A stretch of 64,000 bases of DNA. It comes from a bacterium (GTDB lineage Bacteria; Patescibacteriota; Microgenomatia; Woykebacterales; RBG-16-39-9b). The translations under genes were made by a program, and so were the position numbers. Below, in pieces: positions 19,560-31,043 of this stretch; positions within the stretch are counted from its first letter, which is position 1, and each line of letters opens with the position of its first letter. The stretch lies in assembly GCA_030704665.1 (NCBI GenBank), contig JAUYID010000009.1, positions 586,460 through 650,459 on the forward strand. Reading direction: 5' to 3'. The notes under the pieces were generated by a model, which was not told the origin of the DNA, ran no database searches, and saw only the letters and a list, made by a program, of their open reading frames with translations.

Positions 19560-21578
19560 CTATTTAAGAAAGGGTACGAGGAGTAAAGCAACGATGTTGA
19601 TAACCTTAATCATTGGGTTAATTGCCGGACCCGCCGTATCTTTATAGGGGTCTCCAACTGTATCTCCGGTGACCGCGGCTTTGTGGGCTTCCGAGCCTTT
19701 TCCACCGTACTGCCCTTCTTCGATGTATTTCTTGGCATTGTCCCAGGCGGCTCCTCCGTTTGTCATCGAGACGGCGACGAAAACTCCAGTAATTAAAGTT
19801 CCAACGAGCAACCCTCCAAGCGCTGCTGCTCCCAGAAAGTAGCCGACCAGTACTGGGGCCACGACTGGAATTAGCGCGGGGACGATCATTTCTTTTTGAG
19901 CTGCCGCAGTCACGATAGCAACTGCCCGAGCGTAATCTGGTTTAGCACTCCCTTCCATGATCCCTTTGATTTCTTTGAATTGGCGGCGCACTTCAGTGAC
20001 CACACTACCAGCCGCTTTGCCAACCGCCTCCATTGCGAGAGCAGCAAAAAAGTAAGGTAGGGCTCCGCCAATGAAAAGTCCGACGAGAACTTTTGGATCG
20101 GAAATAGTGAAAGTAACCGTACGACCGGCAGCCAGCAACTCTTCTGAGTAAGCTGCAAACAAAACGAGAGCGGCTAACCCCGCTGAAGCAATCGCATAAC
20201 CTTTGGTGACAGCTTTGGTAGTGTTGCCAACTGCGTCCAGTGGATCGGTCACCGCTCGGACTGAAGCGGGCAAACCTGCCATCTCGGCGATACCACCAGC
20301 ATTGTCGGTAATCGGTCCAAAGGCATCAATTGCCACCACAATACCGGTCATAGACAGCATGCTCACTGCCGCAATGGCAATCCCGTAGAGACCAGCGAGA
20401 TTAAAGGAAACAAGAATAGCGGCGGCAATAAGTAAAATTGGCGCCAGTGTTGATTTCATTGAGACAGCTAGACCAGCGATGACATTGGTCCCGTGTCCAG
20501 TGGTTGAAGCTCTCGCGATTGATTTTACTGAAGGAAAACCTTTGGAGGTGTAGTATTCGGTAATAACTACCATTCCTAGGGTCACAATCAAGCCAATGAG
20601 AGAAGCATAAAAAAGGCTTTGTGGGTCTGGACCGATCACTGAATCCGTAGAAAGAGCGTACACTTTATTCGCAAAGAAATTGTTCGTCACCCACCAAAAA
20701 CCAATCGCAGCTAGTATTCCAGAAACAATTAATCCTTGGTACAACGCTCGCATTATCCCAGTCCCGGAAAGCCGAACGAACAACGTACCAATAATTGAGG
20801 CAATTATTGAAACTGCTCCCAAGGCGAGTGGGTAAAGAACCACACTTGTGTTACCAGGAAAAACAAGTGAGCCAAGCAACATCGCGGCAATTGAAGTCAC
20901 TGCATAAGTTTCAAAAAGATCAGCCGCCATCCCCGCATCATCTCCGACATTATCCCCGACATTGTCGGCAATTACCGCCGGATTGCGCGGATCATCCTCC
21001 GGAATTCCGGCTTCGACTTTTCCAACTAGATCAGCTCCGACATCAGCTCCTTTGGTAAAAATTCCACCACCCAGGCGAGCAAAAACAGAGATTAAAGAAG
21101 AACCAAACCCAAGACCGATGAGAGCTTTGACATCATGGGTGAAATAATAAAATCCAGCCACAGAAAGCAGGGCCAAACCGACGACAAAAAGTCCGGTCAC
21201 GGCTCCACCTTTGAAAGCAGTATCGAGTGCCGAAGCAAGTCCTTTTTTGGCGGCTTCAGCAGTTCTGACATTAGCTCGCACTGCCACATTCATACCGATA
21301 AAGCCCGCTGCGGCAGAAGCGACTGCTCCGACCAGAAAACCAATTCCAGTCACCATTCCCAGTTTCCACCAAATAATGAGGAAAATCAGCAGACCGACCG
21401 CGCCAACTACTCTATATTGTCGGTTTAAGTAAGCAGAAGCTCCTTCTTGAATCGCAGTAGCGATCTCCTGCATTTTTTTGTCCCCGGCCGAAAGTCTTAA
21501 AACCAAACTGACCAGAACCAGTCCGTAAAGGATGGCAGCGCCTCCGCTAGCCAGAATCCAAAGTAAAGGGTTGTTCAT
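19560..21578 (-). CDS. hppA: membrane-bound H+/Na+-translocating pyrophosphatase
   Basis: 672 aa, about 16 TM helices. Signature [22 protein letters not shown] and a C-terminal ...[21 protein letters not shown]. Confidence 0.9.
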
Positions 21579-21885: not shown

Positions 21886-23001
21886 ATGTACAAACTTTTT
21901 ACTTCTGAATCAGTTGCCGCTGGACACCCAGACAAAATTTGTGATCAGGTCTCCGATGCCATTGTTGACGCGGCTCTCAAAAACGATCCTAGCTCAAGAG
22001 TCGCCGTCGAAACTTTGGTCACTACCAACCGCATCGTTCTCGCTGGCGAAGTTACAACCAGCAAAAAACTTGACTATGAAGCCCTGGCTCGAAAAGTGGT
22101 TCGCGATTTGGGCTATACTGATCCAGAACTTGGCTTTTCCGATCAGGCAGAAGTAGAAGTTTACATCCACGAGCAGTCTAAAGAAATTTCTCATGGGGTT
22201 GATCAGGATGGTGCCGGAGATCAAGGTATGATGTTTGGCTTTGCCAACAATGAAACCCCAGAGCTGATGCCGACTCCAATCATCTTGGCACACAAACTAA
22301 CTGAGAACCTCGACTCTCTAAGAAAAAAGGGAACCTTACCCTATCTTTTGCCAGATGGTAAAAGCGAAGTCACCATTCGCTATGAAGGGTTGAAACCAAC
22401 CGCAGTTGAGCGAGTCGTTCTTGCCGTAGCGCATAAAAAAGAAATTGCCGAAAAAGAACTTGCCGCCGATCTCTTCAAAGAACTTGTCGTTCCAAGCCTT
22501 GAAAAGTTCAAGTTCAGGGTTGACCAGAGCGCTGTCATTATCAATGGTGCTGGGCCTTGGACTAGTCCGGGACCAGCTTCCGATACTGGTTTGACTGGGC
22601 GCAAAATTGTCATTGATACTTATGGCGGTTTTGCTCGAGCTGGTGGGGGCGCGTTTAGTGGTAAGGATCCAACCAAAGTCGACCGTTCCGGAGCCTATGC
22701 AGCGCGCTTTTTGGCCAAAAACATTGTTGCTGAGAATCTTGCTGATCAGGTCGAAGTCCAAGTCGCCTATGTCATTGGCCAAGCCCAACCAGTGGCTAAA
22801 GCAATTGAGACTTTCGGGACCGAAAAGAAAAGTTTAAAGCTGATTGAAGATTTTGCCTGGAATTTGCTTGATTTGGCCGTGCCTCATATTTTGACTAAAC
22901 TTGATTTACGAAAGCCGATCTACCAAAAAACCGCCTCCTACGGTCATTTTGGCCGGGACCACTTCAGCTGGGAAAAAACTTTTCCCAAGAAAAAGAATTG
23001 A
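21886..23001 (+). CDS. metK: S-adenosylmethionine synthetase
   Basis: AAGHPDKICDQVSDAIVDA, GAGDQGMMFGFA and GGGAFSGKDPTKVDRSGAY are the MetK signatures. 371 aa. Confidence 0.9.
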   Translation: MYKLFTSESVAAGHPDKICDQVSDAIVDAALKNDPSSRVAVETLVTTNRIVLAGEVTTSKKLDYEALARKVVRDLGYTDPELGFSDQAEVEVYIHEQSKEISHGVDQDGAGDQGMMFGFANNETPELMPTPIILAHKLTENLDSLRKKGTLPYLLPDGKSEVTIRYEGLKPTAVERVVLAVAHKKEIAEKELAADLFKELVVPSLEKFKFRVDQSAVIINGAGPWTSPGPASDTGLTGRKIVIDTYGGFARAGGGAFSGKDPTKVDRSGAYAARFLAKNIVAENLADQVEVQVAYVIGQAQPVAKAIETFGTEKKSLKLIEDFAWNLLDLAVPHILTKLDLRKPIYQKTASYGHFGRDHFSWEKTFPKKKN

Positions 23002-23147: not shown

Positions 23148-23813
23148 GTGACACTACAAGACTACATTAACCTCACTCAAGACTCAATCAACAACTTCTT
23201 CAATGGTCTCGGACCAACTTTATCCAACATCGTCGCGGCAATCGTCATCTTCGCCATCGGACTAATTATTGGCTCAATACTAAAAAGAGTTTGGGAAGAA
23301 ATCAGTAAGGCAGTCAGTCTCGAAAGAAGTCTTTCTGGTTGGGACGCTTACCAAAAACTGACCAAGGCTCATGACGGAGTCGATCTAACTTCCTTTGTCG
23401 GAGAGTTGCTTCGCTGGCTATCAGTCATTGTCTTCTTGCTTCCAGCCATCGATGCGCTAGGAATTGCCGGTGGACAAAGTGTACTCTCAGCAGTCATGGG
23501 TTACTTGCCAAACGTGGTCGTTGCTAGCTTGTTCTTGGTCGTTGGTTTTGTCATCTCTTGGTTCATTCATCGCTTAGTCATGGTCGCGGGTGTTTTGGTA
23601 GACAAAAACCCCTCCCATCTCATTGCTGACGTTGCTGCTTTAGCAGTCATCGTCTTTGCTCTACTTGGGGCTTTACAGCAGCTTGGCTTGGGCGCTGATC
23701 TGATCAGATTCTTTGTTTTGGCTGGCTTTGCTGCGACGGCTCTTGCCTTTGGATTGGCTGGTAAAGATACAGCCGCGGAATTGATCAAGAAATTCATGGA
23801 TCGAGCCAAATAG
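23148..23813 (+). CDS. small membrane protein with repeated TM-helix motifs (MscS N-terminal 'conserved TM helix' type), paralog 1
   Basis: 221 aa, 5-6 TM helices, internal repeat. Clear paralogy to the next gene (e.g. FVGELLRWLSVIVFLLPAIDALG vs LLAELLRWFTILIFLIPAVDQLG; both C-termini carry GLxGKDTAA). Confidence 0.6.
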   Translation: MTLQDYINLTQDSINNFFNGLGPTLSNIVAAIVIFAIGLIIGSILKRVWEEISKAVSLERSLSGWDAYQKLTKAHDGVDLTSFVGELLRWLSVIVFLLPAIDALGIAGGQSVLSAVMGYLPNVVVASLFLVVGFVISWFIHRLVMVAGVLVDKNPSHLIADVAALAVIVFALLGALQQLGLGADLIRFFVLAGFAATALAFGLAGKDTAAELIKKFMDRAK

Positions 23814-23851
23814 GAGAAGAATTACTGTGTTAGAAATTATCAAGGAGGACT

Positions 23852-24532
23852 ATGCAAGAGGTAAGTACAGCGGTCGTTGATGCAATCACCGACTCATTGC
23901 GAGCAACAGCTCGTTTCTTACCGAACCTGATCGCAGCGATTGTCATCTTCATCATTGGAGTGATTGTGGCTGCAATCTTGAAGAACGCTCTTTTGAGAAT
24001 TCTCGAGGTTATCAACTTCGAGCGTTGGCTGCACAACACCGGCATTCCCGAAGCCCTGAAACGGGCAGACGCGACTCTTTCAGTCAGTAAACTTTTGGCA
24101 GAACTTCTGCGCTGGTTTACGATTCTGATTTTCTTGATTCCAGCTGTCGATCAGCTAGGACTTGGGGCGGTCAATGAAGTTCTCAGTCAGTTGCTTCTCT
24201 ACATCCCCAACGTTGTGGTCGCCGTGATCATCGTTGCTGTTGGAGCAGTAGCTGCAAAACTGGCACGAGATTTCGTGACAGCGACTGCAACTGGGGTCGG
24301 AACTCAACTCTCGGGCGTGATCGGTCAAGTCGCTCAGACCTCAATTTTGGTCTTTGCGGTCCTAGCCGCCCTCACTCAGCTTGGTGTCGCTCCCGACTTG
24401 ATCAAAATCCTTTTCACCGGCTTTGTTGCTATGCTAGCAATTGCGGGTGGTCTGGCCTTTGGTCTCGGTGGAAAAGATACCGCTGCCGGTGTCTTAGAGA
24501 CAATACGAAAGAGCTTTCAGGAAAAGAAGTAA
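23852..24532 (+). CDS. small membrane protein with repeated TM-helix motifs, paralog 2
   Basis: 226 aa, tandem paralog of the preceding gene, with its own RBS (AAGGAGGA at 23833). Confidence 0.6.
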   Translation: MQEVSTAVVDAITDSLRATARFLPNLIAAIVIFIIGVIVAAILKNALLRILEVINFERWLHNTGIPEALKRADATLSVSKLLAELLRWFTILIFLIPAVDQLGLGAVNEVLSQLLLYIPNVVVAVIIVAVGAVAAKLARDFVTATATGVGTQLSGVIGQVAQTSILVFAVLAALTQLGVAPDLIKILFTGFVAMLAIAGGLAFGLGGKDTAAGVLETIRKSFQEKK

Positions 24533-24644
24533 AAGGGCAAGAAAGCAAAGTAATTCTCTCTTGTACTGGGGCTTCTTTATGAAGTAAAATTCTTGCTGAA
24601 AATGCACGATTATCTGTCCGCCTCTGTCCTGATAAGGAGGCCCT

Positions 24645-26873
24645 ATGTATAAAAACCTGCTCCTTTTGCATCAACTTGAAAAAGAAGACTCCCCTGAGGT
24701 TGGGTTCAAGGCCGCACGTTTGGGTGAACTGTCCAGGCAAGGTCTAAAAACTCCCTCTGGCTTTGTCATTGCTTCAGAAGCTTTTTTTGATCTCCTCAAA
24801 AATAACAATCTTTACGAAAAATTTGAAAGCCTTTTTAAATCTCTGGACTTTCACCACCATCATGAACTCGAAAGCGCTTCTCTAATTTTTAAAAAGGCTC
24901 TTTTGGCTTCCCAACTACCAACTGATTTGGAGGAAAAGCTCAAAAGCGTCTTTTCTTCGTTTTCTCCTGTCTCAAGCCAATTTTTTCTTTCTTTGAGTAC
25001 AAACAATGAAGCTGTTGCCAGTTTTTTTGAAGAAAAGGAAAAATTTTTCACCGCCAGAAGTCTAAACGTCTTTATCAAAGAATTAAAATCTTCTTGGGCG
25101 GACGTCTTTGACCCAAAAGTTATTTTTCTTGCCAAAAGCAAGGAAGTTGACTTTGCAACTCTGACCCCAAGCTTAGTTTTTCAAGCCCTCGCCGCCGCCG
25201 ATGCCTCGGGGACGATCAAAACAAGGCAAACTTCTCTCGGCAACCTTGTTTCCCTCACCGCCCTCTGGGGTTTGGATACGGACCTTCACAAAAGAGTCGA
25301 TGAGGCAGACACTTACTTGGTTGACAAAAAAACCTTGGCCATTGTCCGAAAAACCATTGGTCAGCAAAAAATTCAACTCATTCCTGTGAGGGATAGTGTC
25401 AAAAAACTGCCAGTACCTTTAGTCTTTTCTAGCCAACAAAAACTTGAGGATCGCCTCATTCAAAAGCTGTGCAAAGACGCAGTAAAAATAGAGAACCACT
25501 TTCTTTCTCCCCAAAAAATCCACTGGTTTTTGGTTGACGACAACCTAATGATCGACAGTACCCAGCCTTTAGAGGAAACAGAGAAGATAAACTTCAACTC
25601 CGCCCGCTTACTTCTGGAAAATTCTCTACAAGTTCTCGCCAAAGGAAGGGGTCTCTATCCAGGAATTGCAACGGGACCAATTAAATTTTTAAGCTCGAAA
25701 TTGACTAGTACCAAACCAAACCTGAGCAAAGTAAAAAATGGGGATATAGTTTTTCTCAAAGAGTACTCGAACAAATACTCTCCTCTACTTCGCAAGGCTG
25801 CTGGCTTGGTAGTCAGCAAACTTCCAGAAAAAGCCTTTAGCGCTTCTTTAAGAAATCTGGGCAAACCAACTCTGGTTGGAGAAGTAGCGGAAAACTACGC
25901 TGGACAAGTCGTTACTCTTGATGGTGGAGAAGGAAAAGTACTGAAAGGTGCTTGGGCTAGGGAGTCCCGGCGCAGTCTTCCCACCCGAGCACAGACAGTC
26001 CCAGAACACCGTCGGCTCACCAAAATTTTTGTTAGTACCGGAGAGCCACAACTTGCGCAGGAACTGGCCCAACAAAACTTCGACGGAGTTGGTTTACTGC
26101 GCGCCGAGCCAATTTGGACGCAGATCGGTACTCATCCCCAGCTGGTTCTGAGAGAAAAGGGAGAGAAAAAGTTTGTTCGCGCTCTCGCAAACCAGATCGG
26201 CAAACTCGCGGCAGCTTTTTCCCCTCGGCCGGTGATCTACCGAGCCAGTGAATTTACTCTCGAGGATTTGCAGGCTCTTCGCGGTAGTCCCAAAGAGCAA
26301 GCTTCTGAGAGCTCTCCCCAAGGAGCTGCCTATTTTCTAGCTCATCCAGAGCACTTTGAACTTGAGCTTGAAGCAATCAAGGAGGTACGCAATGGTCTGG
26401 GCTTTAAAAACCTTTGGCTCGCGATTCCTCTAGTTCGCAGCGTTGAAGAAATGGAAAAAATCAAAAAACAAGTTTCCGGCATTGGTTTACCTCGTTCTGG
26501 CTCTTTCCGCTTGCTGATGATCGCGGAAGTTCCCGCCAACACGGTTCTCATCGATCAATTCTTGGAAACCGGTATTGATGGCCTTGTTGTTGATGTAGCT
26601 GATCTTGCTTCTTTGATTTTGGGTAAGACCACTTCACCGGGTTCAAAAACTAGCCCGGCGGTGCTCGATTCTTTAGCTAGATTGATCAAAGAAACCCGCA
26701 AAAGAAAGCTCTTTGCTTCGGCTATTCTTCAAGCCGGAGAGCTGAACGAGGAAATCTTGGAAACCCTCGTCCGAGCCGGAGTCTCGGCTGTTTCCGTGCC
26801 GCACCCTTACCTGAACCAGGCGGCTTCACTTTTGACTAAAGCTGAAAAGAAAATTGTCACGGGAAAAAACTAG
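24645..26873 (+). CDS. PEP-utilising-enzyme family protein (PpsA / pyruvate,water-dikinase-like), probably non-canonical
   Basis: 742 aa. N-terminal nucleotide-binding domain (GFKAARLGELSRQGLKTPSGFVIASEAFF), central mobile domain and C-terminal barrel (GVGLLRAEPIW, RASEF). The expected phospho-His (GGRTSHAA) appears as LPEKAFSA, and the MCE Cys as MIAEVP. Confidence 0.65.
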   Translation: MYKNLLLLHQLEKEDSPEVGFKAARLGELSRQGLKTPSGFVIASEAFFDLLKNNNLYEKFESLFKSLDFHHHHELESASLIFKKALLASQLPTDLEEKLKSVFSSFSPVSSQFFLSLSTNNEAVASFFEEKEKFFTARSLNVFIKELKSSWADVFDPKVIFLAKSKEVDFATLTPSLVFQALAAADASGTIKTRQTSLGNLVSLTALWGLDTDLHKRVDEADTYLVDKKTLAIVRKTIGQQKIQLIPVRDSVKKLPVPLVFSSQQKLEDRLIQKLCKDAVKIENHFLSPQKIHWFLVDDNLMIDSTQPLEETEKINFNSARLLLENSLQVLAKGRGLYPGIATGPIKFLSSKLTSTKPNLSKVKNGDIVFLKEYSNKYSPLLRKAAGLVVSKLPEKAFSASLRNLGKPTLVGEVAENYAGQVVTLDGGEGKVLKGAWARESRRSLPTRAQTVPEHRRLTKIFVSTGEPQLAQELAQQNFDGVGLLRAEPIWTQIGTHPQLVLREKGEKKFVRALANQIGKLAAAFSPRPVIYRASEFTLEDLQALRGSPKEQASESSPQGAAYFLAHPEHFELELEAIKEVRNGLGFKNLWLAIPLVRSVEEMEKIKKQVSGIGLPRSGSFRLLMIAEVPANTVLIDQFLETGIDGLVVDVADLASLILGKTTSPGSKTSPAVLDSLARLIKETRKRKLFASAILQAGELNEEILETLVRAGVSAVSVPHPYLNQAASLLTKAEKKIVTGKN

Positions 26874-27121
26874 TGCTCTGTGGGCGAGGAAGATGTGGCT
26901 TGTCTAGGAGTCGAGCTTTGAGTGCTGTTTGCTTGTCTGTTTTCCTCCCCACCACTTGATCGGAAAAAGATAAACCCAAGACCAAAAAGAATCAGCAGGA
27001 CAGCTAAAATTGCTACCAAAAGCCCGGTCTTGCCCTGATTTTCGTCGGATTTTTTTTCAGTTGCTAGAACTGCTTGGTCGGTATCTGAACTTGGAGAAAG
27101 CGAAGGAGTTTGTTCTTCCAT
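26870..27121 (-). CDS. hypothetical small membrane protein
   Basis: 83 aa. Ser/Thr-rich N-terminus, one TM helix (LLVAILAVLLILFGLGFIFF), Ser/Thr-rich tail. Could be spurious. Confidence 0.35.
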   Translation of the reverse strand: MEEQTPSLSPSSDTDQAVLATEKKSDENQGKTGLLVAILAVLLILFGLGFIFFRSSGGEENRQANSTQSSTPRQATSSSPTEH

Positions 27122-27344: not shown

Positions 27345-27420
27345 GGGCCTCTAGCTCAATTGGTAGAGCAGCGGCCTTTTAAGCCGCGTGTTCTGGGTTC
27401 GAGTCCCAGGAGGCTCACCA
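27345..27420 (+). tRNA. tRNA-Lys (anticodon TTT)
   Basis: Cloverleaf with acceptor GGGCCTC/GAGGCTC, D-arm GCTC..GAGC, anticodon stem GCGGC/GCCGC with loop CTTTTAA, T-arm CTGGG-TTCGAGT-CCCAG, encoded CCA. Confidence 0.9.
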
Positions 27421-27905: not shown

Positions 27906-28079
27906 CTCAGGTTGGCGAGCCTAATGATGTCTTTGTTGTTTTGATTTGGGAAAAATAATTGGGGAAGAAACTTAAACCAAGGCACGACAAGACCGCCAAC
28001 TTAGTTGGATGTCTTGCTTTTCTTGATGTTTAAGTTTAAATTCATTGTTTGGAGTTTACCCCAAGAGCACAGTTTTGTC

Positions 28080-28103
28080 AAAAAGCTGCCATTCTAGCAC
28101 TTT
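28080..28103 (+). repeat. direct repeat copy 1: AAAAAGCTGCCATTCTAGCA(C)TTTT, left boundary of the AT-rich cassette
   Basis: 20 nt identical to 30011-30030; extends to 24 nt with one indel. It overlaps the -35 to -10 region in front of the 28122 operon, and TGTAAAAT lies 10 nt downstream. Confidence 0.8.
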
Positions 28104-28121
28104 TGGTGTAAAATTCGAAAT

Positions 28122-28670
28122 ATGAAACTTTATCGATTCAGCCCGATTAAAAAATTAGAAAAACTATTTGAAGCAATTAAACACATTCATTTTGAGGCTC
28201 ACAAACTTTCAAAACAATCCTTCGGCTATTACCTTCCAAATAACGCTGGTAACATTGGTGTGTTTTGTCACTATGACGATGAATATGAAGCTCTGATAAA
28301 GATTAGAAAAGACTTAACAAAACCCTCCGATAATCCAAACCAAAAGTACTTCACTTTACTAAAACCAATCGTTATTCCAGCACAAGATGATGTTCCAGAA
28401 ACTACTTACACCCATCTTTATATTCGAAAACCAGACCCCTATCGCCATCACGTAGGAGATGTTGATTTCTATTTGGAGCCAGAAGAGTACAAAAAACCAA
28501 AAGGAGAACTACTTGCTGGTAAGAAAATGAAAGGAGCTAGAGTTTTTGAAAGACCTGATTTGGATATGATTGAACTTTTTGATCCGGACGTTGATGTTCT
28601 TGCTTACGTTAGCACTGAAAAGATGTCAGAAGCAGTCAGGGTTAAACTTTCTGAACACACTAAACTATAA
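28122..28670 (+). CDS. hypothetical protein (AT-rich cassette)
   Basis: 182-aa ORF, about 30% GC, first gene of a three-gene same-strand cluster. No motif recognised. Confidence 0.5.
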   Translation: MKLYRFSPIKKLEKLFEAIKHIHFEAHKLSKQSFGYYLPNNAGNIGVFCHYDDEYEALIKIRKDLTKPSDNPNQKYFTLLKPIVIPAQDDVPETTYTHLYIRKPDPYRHHVGDVDFYLEPEEYKKPKGELLAGKKMKGARVFERPDLDMIELFDPDVDVLAYVSTEKMSEAVRVKLSEHTKL

Positions 28671-28671
28671 A

Positions 28672-28962
28672 ATGATAATTCATATAGCTTTGTTCAAATT
28701 CAAACCAGAAATTTCTAACGAAGACATTAATCATGCAATGGTTGAAGTTAGATCATTGAAGGACAAGATTCCTCAAGTTGTTGAGATCTTTGCTGGGGAA
28801 AACTTTTCTAAACACTCCAAAGGTTTCACTCATGCAATCGTGGTAAAATTTGCTAGCAGGGAAGATATTGATACCTATCGAGCTCACCCTGACCACAAAC
28901 CAATAGCAGACAAACTAGATTCTTTAGAGGATGATTCTATAGGAATCGATTTTGAAGTATGA
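28672..28962 (+). CDS. Dabb (stress-responsive dimeric alpha/beta-barrel) domain protein
   Basis: MIIHIALFKFKPE...VVKFASREDIDTYRAHPDHKPIADKL matches the Dabb pattern. Start trimmed to the ATG 1 nt after the preceding stop. Confidence 0.7.
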   Translation: MIIHIALFKFKPEISNEDINHAMVEVRSLKDKIPQVVEIFAGENFSKHSKGFTHAIVVKFASREDIDTYRAHPDHKPIADKLDSLEDDSIGIDFEV

Positions 28963-29567
28963 AAAGACTTTTCTTAGCCTCAGTTTTTGCTGAATCAGCA
29001 GATAAATTTGTTGATGCATTTCACGATTCCCTTGAGAAAACAACGGTAGCCTTTATTCCCACTGCTGCTGACCCATATGAGGACAAATGGTTTGTTGATG
29101 TTGATAGAAAAGCACTGGAAGAGAGAGGTTACTTAGTGCAGGAGGTAGATTTGAAGAAAAAAGGTGAAGGTAACTTGAGAGAAGAAATGGGTAATGCCGG
29201 TATAATTTTTGTCTGTGGTGGAAATACTTTCTACCTGCTTGAAAAGGCTAGAGAATCAGGTTTTGATGAGGTTGTAAAAGAGTTTGTTGAAAAAGGGGTT
29301 ATCTATATTGGATCGAGTGCAGGGTCTGTGCTAGTAGGACCAGACATTGAACCAGTAGCGTGGATGGATGATCCCAGCAAAGCCAAATTAGATTCAACAA
29401 AAGGTTTTGGACTAGTAGACTTTGTTGCCCTGCCTCATTTTGGCAACAAGAAGTACATATCAAAATATGAAGAAATAATGGAAAAATATTCAGGAAAATA
29501 CGATTTGATCAAGCTAACTGATCAAGAAGCAGTTGTTGTGGAGGGTGGGAACCATAGGATCGTATGA
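28959..29567 (+). CDS. peptidase S51 family protein (dipeptidase E / cyanophycinase-like)
   Basis: ...VAFIPTAADPYEDKWFVDVDRKALEERGY...IFVCGGNTFYLLEKA...IGSSAGSVLVGPDIE is the type-1 glutaminase-like S51 fold with nucleophile Ser in GSSAGS. Overlaps the Dabb gene by 4 nt (ATGA). Confidence 0.7.
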   Translation: MKRLFLASVFAESADKFVDAFHDSLEKTTVAFIPTAADPYEDKWFVDVDRKALEERGYLVQEVDLKKKGEGNLREEMGNAGIIFVCGGNTFYLLEKARESGFDEVVKEFVEKGVIYIGSSAGSVLVGPDIEPVAWMDDPSKAKLDSTKGFGLVDFVALPHFGNKKYISKYEEIMEKYSGKYDLIKLTDQEAVVVEGGNHRIV

Positions 29568-29572
29568 AGTCC

Positions 29573-29971
29573 CTAAAGTGGGTAAAGCAAATATATAGGT
29601 TTTTCTGGTAGTCTCTGTCTAAACCCAGCTTCTCGTTTATCAACTGGAAAGTTAAGCCAAGGATCCATCCATCTTTTCCCCATTCTACATAAATAATGTC
29701 CTTCAGGGTATTTCTTAGACCTTCTCAGAAAGACCATTTCCCCTTCCTTGTAAATTCTCTTTCTTAGTTTGGGTTTGATGTAATTGTATTCGTACCTCAA
29801 CCCTTGGTTTGCGAGTACTTCAACGATTTCACGACAATAGAAACCTGTGTTCTGAGACTTTTTCTCACCCTCTCTAAACAGACTTAAAGCACTTTGATAA
29901 CCAATTTCTAAGATTGAGGCAACACAAGCTACGCCACAACCAAAGTCGTCTTCCTGTTTTATTGGTTTCAT
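29573..29971 (-). CDS. standalone peptidase-C39-like (papain-like Cys peptidase) domain protein
   Basis: 132 aa. DFGCGVACVASIL matches the C39 catalytic-Cys motif, with His in PEGHYLCRM. No fused ABC transporter domains. Confidence 0.55.
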   Translation of the reverse strand: MKPIKQEDDFGCGVACVASILEIGYQSALSLFREGEKKSQNTGFYCREIVEVLANQGLRYEYNYIKPKLRKRIYKEGEMVFLRRSKKYPEGHYLCRMGKRWMDPWLNFPVDKREAGFRQRLPEKPIYLLYPL

Positions 29972-30010
29972 AAAGGGATTGTAAGATTTATATATTTATT
30001 AACAAGAAGT

Positions 30011-30034
30011 AAAAAGCTGCCATTCTAGCATTTT
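30011..30034 (+). repeat. direct repeat copy 2: AAAAAGCTGCCATTCTAGCATTTT, right boundary of the AT-rich cassette
   Basis: Identical 20-mer to 28080-28099. Base composition returns to background immediately after it. Confidence 0.8.
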
Positions 30035-30089
30035 AATTATCAGCCGCTCAACTAGACAACCAAGAAAGCTTTCGGCTAAACTTAGGTGA

Positions 30090-31043
30090 ATGAAGCTAGC
30101 ACCGAAACTGGTCCGCATTTTAGGTTTTTCAGAAGAAAGCGAAAGCAACAAATTCCTCTATCTGATCTGCATCATTTATCTTGTGGCTCTGAGCCTTTTC
30201 ATGCTTTGGCATCGCATGTGGTTTTCCCCGGATCAATTTCTGATTGCAGCGGTGGTAGCAGCGCTTATTTTGGGAAAATTTGGTCAGTTTGTCAAAGATT
30301 GGGTGCCTTTCGTTCTCCTCTTTCTTGGCTATGAGGCCCTGCGTGGCCTCGCCCCGATTCTCAACAAAAACGTTCACATCACTGAAATGATCCAAGCTGA
30401 CAAATTTATCTTTGGTTTTTTACCCACGATCAGACTCCAAGAGCTTCTTTTCTACCCGGGCCAGCCACAATGGTACGACTTTGTGGCGATCATTCTCTAC
30501 ATGTCCCACTTCATCATGCCCATGGTAACAGCCTTTGTTTTTTGGCTGCTTGATAAAAAAACCTTCCGGGAGTTTACTTGGGCACTGATCATTCTTTCTT
30601 TCGCTGGTTTTATCACCTATGTACTCTATCCAGCCATGCCACCTTGGCTGGCTGCCAACCAAGGCTACCTACCCCCCTTGGAAAAAATTATGGACGCCAC
30701 TATCGCCAACCTCGCCAACCCTATTGCTCTACCAACCGTTTACAAGCTTTTCCGAGGCGATGAGGTCGCCGCCATGCCTTCGTTACACGCTGCCTACCCA
30801 ATTTTAATCGCTCTTTTCTTTGTGCGTAAATTTCGCCTCTCCGCCCTTTTGACTGTCCCCTATGTAGCGACCGTTTGGTTTGCGGTAGTTTACCTCGGAG
30901 AGCACTACGTCATTGACGTTATCTTTGGAGCGCTCTACGCCCTGATCGTCTTTTTGCTTGTCACAAAGAAAGACTACTTACTGTCTAAGCTAAGGGTACT
31001 AAAAAACGAAACAAGAGCCGAGACTAGCAAAGCTCAGACTTGA
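30090..31043 (+). CDS. PAP2-superfamily membrane phosphatase-like protein (PAP2_C/AUR1-like)
   Basis: 317 aa, polytopic, with PSLHAAYP and GEHYVIDV resembling PAP2 motifs C2 and C3. Confidence 0.5.
   Translation: MKLAPKLVRILGFSEESESNKFLYLICIIYLVALSLFMLWHRMWFSPDQFLIAAVVAALILGKFGQFVKDWVPFVLLFLGYEALRGLAPILNKNVHITEMIQADKFIFGFLPTIRLQELLFYPGQPQWYDFVAIILYMSHFIMPMVTAFVFWLLDKKTFREFTWALIILSFAGFITYVLYPAMPPWLAANQGYLPPLEKIMDATIANLANPIALPTVYKLFRGDEVAAMPSLHAAYPILIALFFVRKFRLSALLTVPYVATVWFAVVYLGEHYVIDVIFGALYALIVFLLVTKKDYLLSKLRVLKNETRAETSKAQT

Follow-up and report, generated by a model that had tools for sequence, protein, structure and literature searches.

What keeps a gene of the phosphoenolpyruvate (PEP) synthase family in a bacterial genome once the residues for its chemistry are gone? 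This is the question raised by a 64-kb window (the whole stretch of 64,000 nucleotides that was analysed) from the Candidatus Woykebacteria lineage, in which a gene for a 742-residue protein resembling PEP synthase (PpsA; pyruvate, water dikinase) lies downstream of metK and of two membrane-protein genes, here called TM1 and TM2. An earlier note on this DNA had proposed that the protein was a pseudoenzyme or an enzyme with new chemistry and that the three genes formed a sensing or signalling unit; the coordinates that it gave for these three open reading frames (ORFs), on the same strand downstream of metK, proved exact. Our analysis makes it likely that the 742-residue gene is a catalytically dead descendant of ppsA, decayed in place and kept by purifying selection for a non-catalytic role that depends on its fold. 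A genuine ppsA in this lineage would have lost the chemistry of its three reaction centres in place, the resulting folded but non-catalytic protein would then have been retained by purifying selection, and its role would probably be structural or regulatory, exerted through protein-protein contacts of the PpsA scaffold. The gene and its parts lie as follows.

24634-24640, forward strand: Shine-Dalgarno sequence AAGGAGG, 4 nt ahead of the ATG of the PpsA-like gene
24645-26873, forward strand: PpsA-like gene, 742 residues; putative PpsA-derived pseudoenzyme, positional orthologue of ppsA
24645-25577, forward strand: ATP-grasp-like N-terminal domain (residues 1-311); fold predicted to be kept, nucleotide-site residues replaced
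25632-25964, forward strand: central remnant of the swivel domain (residues 330-440); zero His, PF00391 below its cutoff
25836-25838, forward strand: codon of F398, at the position of the phospho-carrier His; LPEKAFSA against GGxTSHAA
26007-26873, forward strand: C-terminal remnant of the PEP/pyruvate barrel (residues 455-742); R486, R533, E628 and D653 kept
26724-26726, forward strand: codon of I694, at the position of the catalytic Cys; SAILQ against SICGQ

The three-domain architecture of PEP synthase, already suggested in the earlier note, was recovered by several methods. Pfam models recognised PPDK_N (PF01326, 6.6e-34) and PEP-utilizers_C (PF02896, 2e-21) at significant values, with the mobile domain PF00391 below threshold (17.0 bits; cutoff, 23.1). 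The NCBIfam equivalog models of PpsA aligned to the protein from end to end, with scores under their cutoffs (NF005057, 348.3 versus 598 bits; TIGR01418, 331.1 versus 739.75 bits). An AlphaFold2 model had a mean predicted local distance difference test (pLDDT) score of 80, its low-confidence stretches being the inter-domain linkers and the former active-site loops 396-400 and 662-666. The best Foldseek match of this model was the N. meningitidis PpsA (2ols; E, 2.5e-46), while the C-terminal barrel matched those of the archaeal PpsAs 9dae and 8a8e with template-modelling scores of 0.81-0.85, and the N-terminal domain matched the ATP-grasp domain of rifampin phosphotransferase (5hv6) with scores of 0.87-0.88. 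Together, AlphaFold2 and Foldseek recovered all three PpsA domains, and the protein is predicted to have the PpsA fold.

We then scored the protein in a catalytic frame of 13 residues taken from C. symbiosum pyruvate phosphate dikinase (PPDK), that is, K22, R92, D321, E323, Q335 and R337 for the ATP-grasp site, H455 for the phosphate carrier, R561, R617, E745, N768 and D769 for the PEP/Mg site, and C831, which we take to have the roles given in the PPDK mutagenesis literature. The PPDK mutant structures K22A (1jde), R337A (2dik) and T453A were among the Foldseek matches in the PDB. In this frame the window protein reads KSKHSQ / F / RREAD / I instead of the canonical KRDEQR / H / RREND / C, the latter being the signature, exactly or nearly so, of its 16 closest canonical relatives. 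Three pairwise alignments to PDB structures and a 17-sequence alignment all placed F398 at the phospho-His position, within the LPEKAFSA reading that the earlier note had given for GGxTSHAA, in a column that holds His in 16/16 relatives. Counts that need no alignment gave the same picture, as residues 294-454 are free of His and the sole Cys of the whole protein is C276. Since the swivel domain has no His, the protein should be unable to carry phosphate, and since the barrel has no Cys, the acid/base Cys of the PEP/pyruvate site is absent. The earlier note was thus right that this Cys is missing but looked for it in the wrong place: at the position that it chose, MCE(I/V)P, functional relatives carry V, A or C, and archaeal PEP synthases of solved structure carry A or I. 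A study of the P. furiosus PPSA found that Cys756 alone takes part in catalysis; counted along the 8a8e alignment, this residue falls in SICGQ, and the Cys of S(I/V/L)CGQ is invariant in 16/16 relatives, where the window protein has SAILQ (I694).

The nucleotide site, a point that the earlier note had missed, has lost five of its six residues. Only K22 is kept, while the positions of R92, D321, E323, Q335 and R337 (numbered as in C. symbiosum PPDK) hold other residues, with VRSSATAED changed to LSLS---TNNE, QDIEW to QKIHW and VQTRP to DSTQP. In the PEP/Mg site, four of the five residues are kept (RREAD, corresponding to R486, R533, E628 and D653 of the window protein), and the losses in the barrel comprise N768 (now A652), the adjacent DRD loop and the catalytic Cys. 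Judged from these residues, all three reaction centres would be defective, and the counts made without an alignment already exclude a His and a Cys at the catalytic positions. Thus, the protein shares with the PpsAs of N. meningitidis (2ols), P. furiosus (8a8e) and S. marinus (9dae) a three-domain fold and full-length homology (phmmer E, 1e-48 to 1e-61) but differs from them in the loss of five of six ATP-site residues, the phospho-His, Asn768 and the catalytic Cys and in its sub-cutoff equivalog scores. With PPDK (C. symbiosum 1kbl, maize 1vbg) it has in common the ATP-grasp, swivel and barrel folds (Foldseek E, ca. 1e-26 to 1e-29), whereas sequence identity is 13-14%, PPDK has an extra N-terminal subdomain, and only K22, R561, R617, E745 and D769 of the PPDK catalytic set are left.

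Relatives of the protein were hard to find by similarity. A word-indexed search with the single protein gave a nearest relative of 32% identity, so that it appeared to be a singleton, and word-indexed searches with either the protein or a profile of the degenerate clade returned canonical PpsAs only, missing every degenerate orthologue. The GTDB representative genomes, a set that does not include the source genome, contained no close orthologue and only distant Bacillus-type homologues. The degenerate family surfaced by way of synteny from the conserved neighbour TM2 and through an exhaustive phmmer search. TM2 had relatives at 56-87% identity, many of them in metagenome-assembled genomes of Candidatus Woykebacteria (Patescibacteria, Microgenomates group), and a block of genes in the order H+-pyrophosphatase (H+-PPase, on the opposite strand), metK, TM1, TM2 and PpsA-like gene was found at 13 distinct loci of this clade. 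In the window the neighbours of the PpsA-like gene are the following.

19560-21578, reverse strand: membrane H+-PPase, divergent from metK, TM1, TM2 and the PpsA-like gene; member of the block
21886-23001, forward strand: metK, S-adenosylmethionine synthetase, upstream member of the collinear block
23148-23813, forward strand: TM1, membrane protein of 221 residues with two PF05552 stretches; tandem paralogue of TM2
23852-24532, forward strand: TM2, membrane protein of 226 residues with two PF05552 repeats; likeness to the MscS membrane domain at residues 114-202

The order and orientation of TM1, TM2 and the PpsA-like gene were kept in 12 of the 13 block loci with gaps of 12-146 bp (112 bp between TM2 and the PpsA-like gene in the window), the exception being L024, a block locus without metK and TM1. 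In fact, collinearity extends over the entire region throughout the clade, with a CMK-like gene, the PPase and metK upstream and UPF0102, RNase HII, CAP, PolA and GatB downstream. The only variable slot is directly 3' of the PpsA-like gene and holds a CYTH gene, VKOR, a 930-residue unknown protein or, in the window, a tRNA followed by a low-GC insert. The CYTH (triphosphate-tunnel) gene, of ca. 150-160 residues, lies directly 3' of PpsA or PpsA-like genes, canonical or degenerate, in six loci of the clade (L011:7137-7598, L012:10810-11301, L015:2387-2836, and also L022, L024 and L025) and is absent from the window.

The same slot of the block is occupied by ppsA genes in very different states. 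Canonical genes, with the full signature KRDEQR H RREND C, were found at L020, L022/L023 and L025, and the partial gene of L021 is canonical at both positions that could be scored (K22 and R92). Eight loci, namely, the window, L009, L011, L012, L013, L017, L024 and L031, carry genes degenerate to varying degree, and L016, with only the first 91 codons on its contig, was too short to score, which gives a tally of four canonical (one partial and one with an in-frame stop), eight degenerate and one unscorable. An intermediate, L015/P0206, has lost only N768 (N768A) and the Cys (to Ile); since its contig ends before the upstream genes, its only ties to the block are where it falls in the gene tree and the CYTH gene on its 3' side. 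At L025, a lone in-frame TAA (L025:1630-1632) splits an otherwise fully canonical ppsA into ORFs of 349 and 388 residues in the same frame. This codon is a sequencing error or else a recent nonsense mutation, and the latter would agree with a ppsA that is dispensable in the clade.

Because degenerate and canonical genes share one slot of the block, the decay took place in situ and the adjacency to the membrane-protein genes is older than the decay; by position, the window gene is thus orthologous to genuine ppsA. In a tree of host genes (TM2, metK and PPase), the genomes with canonical ppsA formed one clade, and those with degenerate copies formed one large clade plus two separate lineages, so that, according to where the root is placed, the block has seen between one and three losses, although neighbor-joining trees with such long branches are indicative only.

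Given that a decayed gene may simply be on its way out, we examined whether the degenerate copies evolve as neutral sequence. One can picture the gene as a relic, a redundant ppsA in a reduced genome that is turning into a pseudogene and has no function left. Decay is indeed progressive and mosaic across relatives, and the PpsA-like gene is the fastest-evolving gene of the block (26-40% identity versus 63-87% for its neighbours); between the window and its sister loci, identity was 81-83% for the H+-PPase, 56-87% for TM2, 63-73% for metK, 38-68% for TM1 and 25-39% for the PpsA-like protein. Fourfold degenerate sites of metK and TM2 were identical at chance level in every pair of genomes (0.2-0.4; expected, 0.28). 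Synonymous sites are thus saturated, and over such distances any sequence free of constraint would be completely randomised. The eight degenerate genes are nevertheless intact over 680-754 codons and 25-40% identical in pairs over ca. 650-720 aligned residues. We simulated neutral drift by substitution only, starting from the canonical L020 gene; none of the 1,000 trajectories was still free of stop codons at 75% identity, the median first stop appearing at 98% identity. The GC content at the three codon positions of the PpsA-like gene (0.56/0.38/0.43) is that of a coding sequence and resembles that of metK. Besides, a useless gene of 2.2 kb is unlikely to persist in a genome that, by the length of the source contig, measures roughly 0.94 Mb. 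We regard a relic without function as improbable.

Intact ORFs with 25-40% identity in spite of saturated synonymous sites, together with the failed neutral trajectories, indicate that the degenerate genes are under purifying selection, both against loss of the ORF and for the fold. By rough Kimura distances, the degenerate copies evolve at ca. 3.4 times the rate of metK and the single canonical pair at ca. 1.7 times, from which we infer an approximately twofold relaxation, still far from neutrality. Identity between degenerate copies in the N-terminal, central and C-terminal parts was 0.25, 0.30 and 0.33, with 0.53, 0.61 and 0.62 for canonical pairs; each domain is thus at roughly half the canonical value, and the remaining constraint is evenly distributed. 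In all, 58 columns are conserved in at least seven of the eight degenerate orthologues; 16 of them are Gly, and all match the canonical consensus apart from four L/I/F swaps. Among the same eight orthologues we found no degenerate-specific conserved polar residue, which would have been a sign of neofunctionalisation. This pattern suggests that the fold has been preserved and that no new active site has arisen.

These columns also bear on the enzyme with new chemistry that the earlier note had offered as one of its two options, in which non-canonical residues would sustain a different reaction. Repurposed members of the family exist (VadK, rifampin phosphotransferase and HpeHI), and some relatives of the window protein combine a remodelled C-terminal domain with a retained ATP site and His. 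However, the known repurposed members all keep both the ATP-grasp site and the His, which the window protein has lost, and the catalytic positions vary freely among the degenerate orthologues, whose conserved columns are structural. We therefore drop this option as scarcely credible, while the other one, a pseudoenzyme, comes out stronger than the earlier note had it, with three centres predicted to be defective and eight syntenic degenerate genes that appear to be under purifying selection.

A subtler possibility is a ligand sensor, in which the barrel has kept its affinity for PEP, pyruvate or Mg2+ but not turnover and thereby regulates something. The four PEP/Mg-site residues left in the window protein speak for it, as does the barrel being the best-conserved and most confidently modelled domain. 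Among the degenerate orthologues, L013 likewise keeps four of the five; the others keep 0-2/5, and two of them have no GLLRAE strand, so a function shared by the clade cannot need the site. N768 and the DRD loop are gone in the window protein too. A sensor of this kind seems very improbable to us. As conservation among the degenerate orthologues falls on Gly, Pro and core positions in all three domains and on no catalytic or ligand-binding residue, the role of the protein would be independent of ligand chemistry.

Several observations weigh against retention of a dead PpsA for its fold. Both the non-catalytic function and the expression of the protein are putative. The strong Shine-Dalgarno sequence (ribosome-binding site) occurs in the window copy only and is not conserved in the orthologues, so we dropped it as evidence. 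L009 and L012 have lost part of the barrel, and these deletions, together with the in-frame stop of the canonical L025 copy, fit a gene that is dispensable in the clade and would equally be expected of a relic. The AlphaFold2 alignment included canonical homologues, so that the confident fold is partly inherited from them. Finally, degenerate copies are no more identical to each other than to canonical ones, and what is conserved may therefore be general foldability only. With these points counted, we still consider a fold-dependent, non-catalytic role of the PpsA-like protein the likely explanation.

In order to see how far such proteins extend, we searched 1.84 billion cluster representatives exhaustively with phmmer, which gave 6,408 matches, 541 of them at an E value of ≤1e-30. 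The closest 146 were placed on a clean column frame (mafft --add --keeplength), and 129 of these were full length. Among the 129, all 13 catalytic residues were present in just 22; the His was kept in 62, the Cys in 46 and neither of the two in 55, while 52 had four or fewer of the 13. In a neighbor-joining gene tree, the degenerate proteins of the block type grouped together with partly decayed forms nearby, and the canonical members of the block fell among canonical PpsAs of the candidate phyla radiation (CPR). A second large degenerate group included L018, where a fully degenerate gene (L018:6001-8328; 2/13 residues, with Phe at the His position) has no membrane-protein pair beside it. This gene lies 2 nt upstream of an intact enolase gene, with a GAF-histidine kinase and a response regulator just upstream of it, and its slot next to enolase is that of canonical ppsA in other CPR genomes. 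The window gene, unlike the canonical CPR ppsA genes that we examined, is not beside enolase. Named members of the family came from Woykebacteria, candidate division WWE3 and unclassified Patescibacteria.

Two other mosaic patterns were seen among these matches. P0229, P0236, P0275 and P0344 keep the ATP site (6/6) and the His, have at most one of the five PEP-site residues and have lost the Cys; from these residues they are candidates for VadK- or rifampin phosphotransferase (RPH)-like kinases with a new acceptor substrate. The reverse was found in P0065 and P0082, cyanobacterial-type “putative PEP-binding proteins” that combine degenerate ATP-grasp motifs (VGEKA, LRPSL, no R337) with an intact His, PEP site and CGQ Cys.

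We turn now to the membrane proteins and to the suggestion that the three genes work together. As the earlier note had stated, TM1 and TM2 are paralogues of about 220 residues (221 and 226) built of conserved TM-helix repeats; they share 37% identity (E, 1.4e-25), and each has two stretches of PF05552, “conserved TM helix” (6e-11 and 7.8e-17). The note also had both proteins end in GLxGKDTAA; the motifs exist (GLAGKDTAA and GLGGKDTAA) but lie 12-15 residues before the C termini. TM2 is among the most conserved genes of the block (56-87% across the clade), and TM1 evolves faster (31-68%), which suggests subfunctionalisation after the duplication. With a TM2 profile, residues 114-202 aligned to residues 24-116 (TM1-TM3a) of E. 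coli MscS (E, 6.6e-5), the conserved GGLAFGLGGKDTAAGVL of TM2 facing the Gly/Ala-rich pore helix of MscS. The AlphaFold2 model of TM2 is all helical (pLDDT, 75), and its Foldseek fold matches in the PDB were not significant (E, ca. 2; probability, 0.5-0.7). NF033912 matched the TM proteins at model positions 72-215 of 365 only and below its cutoff, and Pfam gave PF05552 alone, with no PF00924 MS_channel core or cytoplasmic cage in either protein. Both stop after a TM3b-like segment, TM2 at the point where the cytoplasmic domain of MscS would begin. TM1 and TM2 are accordingly best described, on present profiles, as putative cage-less proteins resembling the MscS membrane domain. In common with MscS (2vv5/2oau), TM2 has PF05552 repeats and a pore-helix-like, Gly/Ala-rich GGLAFGLGG...AAGVL; the differences are the missing PF00924, the missing cytoplasmic beta or alpha-beta cage and an extra N-terminal repeat.

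It would be attractive if the dead PpsA were the cytoplasmic partner of these cage-less proteins in a dedicated sensing or signalling module at the membrane. The conserved order and orientation in 12/13 loci fit this, as does the point at which TM2 ends relative to MscS. In a census of 80 further metagenome loci of the TM2 family, annotated with hidden Markov models, all TM2 relatives of at least 56% identity were inside the block, and the tandem duplication was confined to this same clade (compared with L026-L098). At 72 loci with more distant TM2 relatives (≤53% identity), neither metK nor a PpsA-like gene nor another TM-helix gene was present in the available sequence. The adjacency is the same where PpsA is canonical (L020, L022 and L025), it forms part of a collinear region that includes unrelated housekeeping genes, a fully degenerate PpsA exists beside enolase without the membrane pair, and 112 bp separate TM2 from the PpsA-like gene in the window. 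The arrangement whose conservation the earlier note had wished to see checked is thus conserved, but within one clade and not outside it, and it predates the decay. The three-gene unit loses its support with these loci, and we hold a dedicated module to be about as doubtful as the relic. TM1 and TM2 are ancestral neighbours of the PpsA-like gene, and their partnership with it is putative.

How does a PpsA that is predicted to be dead compare with family members of known unorthodox function? VadK (Rv1127c), a PPDK-derived regulatory kinase of M. tuberculosis, has had its PEP domain deleted, keeps Arg106 and His422 and autophosphorylates (PMC13400623). Like VadK, the window protein would be a member of the PEP-utilising family with a non-canonical role outside central carbon metabolism, but it retains its three domains and has lost the whole of the chemistry. 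Rifampin phosphotransferase (5hv1/5fbs) and the HpeHI kinase (9goj) share with it the ATP-grasp and swivel modules (template-modelling score of the N-terminal domain, 0.73-0.88) and differ in their third domain and in their kinase activity, their ATP site and His being intact. A full-text literature search found no text pairing PEP synthase or Patescibacteria with “pseudoenzyme,” and a search for water dikinase with “catalytically inactive” had plant starch enzymes among the matches listed. This is a probable pseudoenzyme lineage for which we found no description in the searchable literature, and should its non-catalytic role be found, the PEP-utilising family would have its first described pseudoenzyme.

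In databases these proteins are hidden behind the name of the enzyme. Fully degenerate members are called “Phosphoenolpyruvate synthase” (UniRef100_A0A1G1WQF9/OGY29841.1 and NCBI MCL4353511.1), and IMG uses “pyruvate,water dikinase” for degenerate members, with P0223, P0234 and P0229 among the names affected. This is a systematic over-annotation that affects metabolic reconstructions of CPR bacteria, and where the gene is of the degenerate type, genome-based claims of PEP production from pyruvate, or of a glycolytic use of PpsA, go too far. Furthermore, with canonical, partly decayed and fully decayed orthologues in one slot, the block offers a natural series for the loss of a three-site “swivel” enzyme, in which the Cys seems to be lost first, and one that bears on why highly reduced genomes keep a dead gene. 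Speculatively, and with rather low odds in our own estimate, the degenerate PpsA-like proteins might form a large CPR family of pseudoenzymes that arose in two or more independent radiations, spans Woykebacteria, WWE3 and other Patescibacteria and has a conserved non-catalytic job, for example, as a scaffold or allosteric regulator at the PEP/pyruvate node of lower glycolysis or, in Woykebacteria, as a trans-acting cytoplasmic partner of the cage-less MscS-like proteins.

As for the remainder of the window, its 64 kb contained no ppsA, ppdK or pyruvate kinase of the working type. An Rfam scan of the same stretch found six tRNAs only, with no riboswitch near metK, and a promoter and terminator scan gave no signal above background that sets operon boundaries. 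The PADLOC models of defence systems had zero matches for the PpsA-like protein, TM1, TM2, a small convergent ORF and the CYTH neighbour. This convergent ORF (26870-27121, reverse strand) encodes 83 residues with one predicted transmembrane helix, shares 4 nt with the end of the PpsA-like gene, stop codon included, and had zero family matches. Farther downstream, just past a tRNA at 27345-27417, positions 28000-31043 form a segment of low GC content (0.37 versus ca. 0.45) with genes for Dabb (28570-28962), Peptidase_S51 (28959-29567) and PAP2 (30090-31043) proteins plus two ORFs without a family match. Filling the sole variable slot of an otherwise collinear region, this segment may be an insertion.

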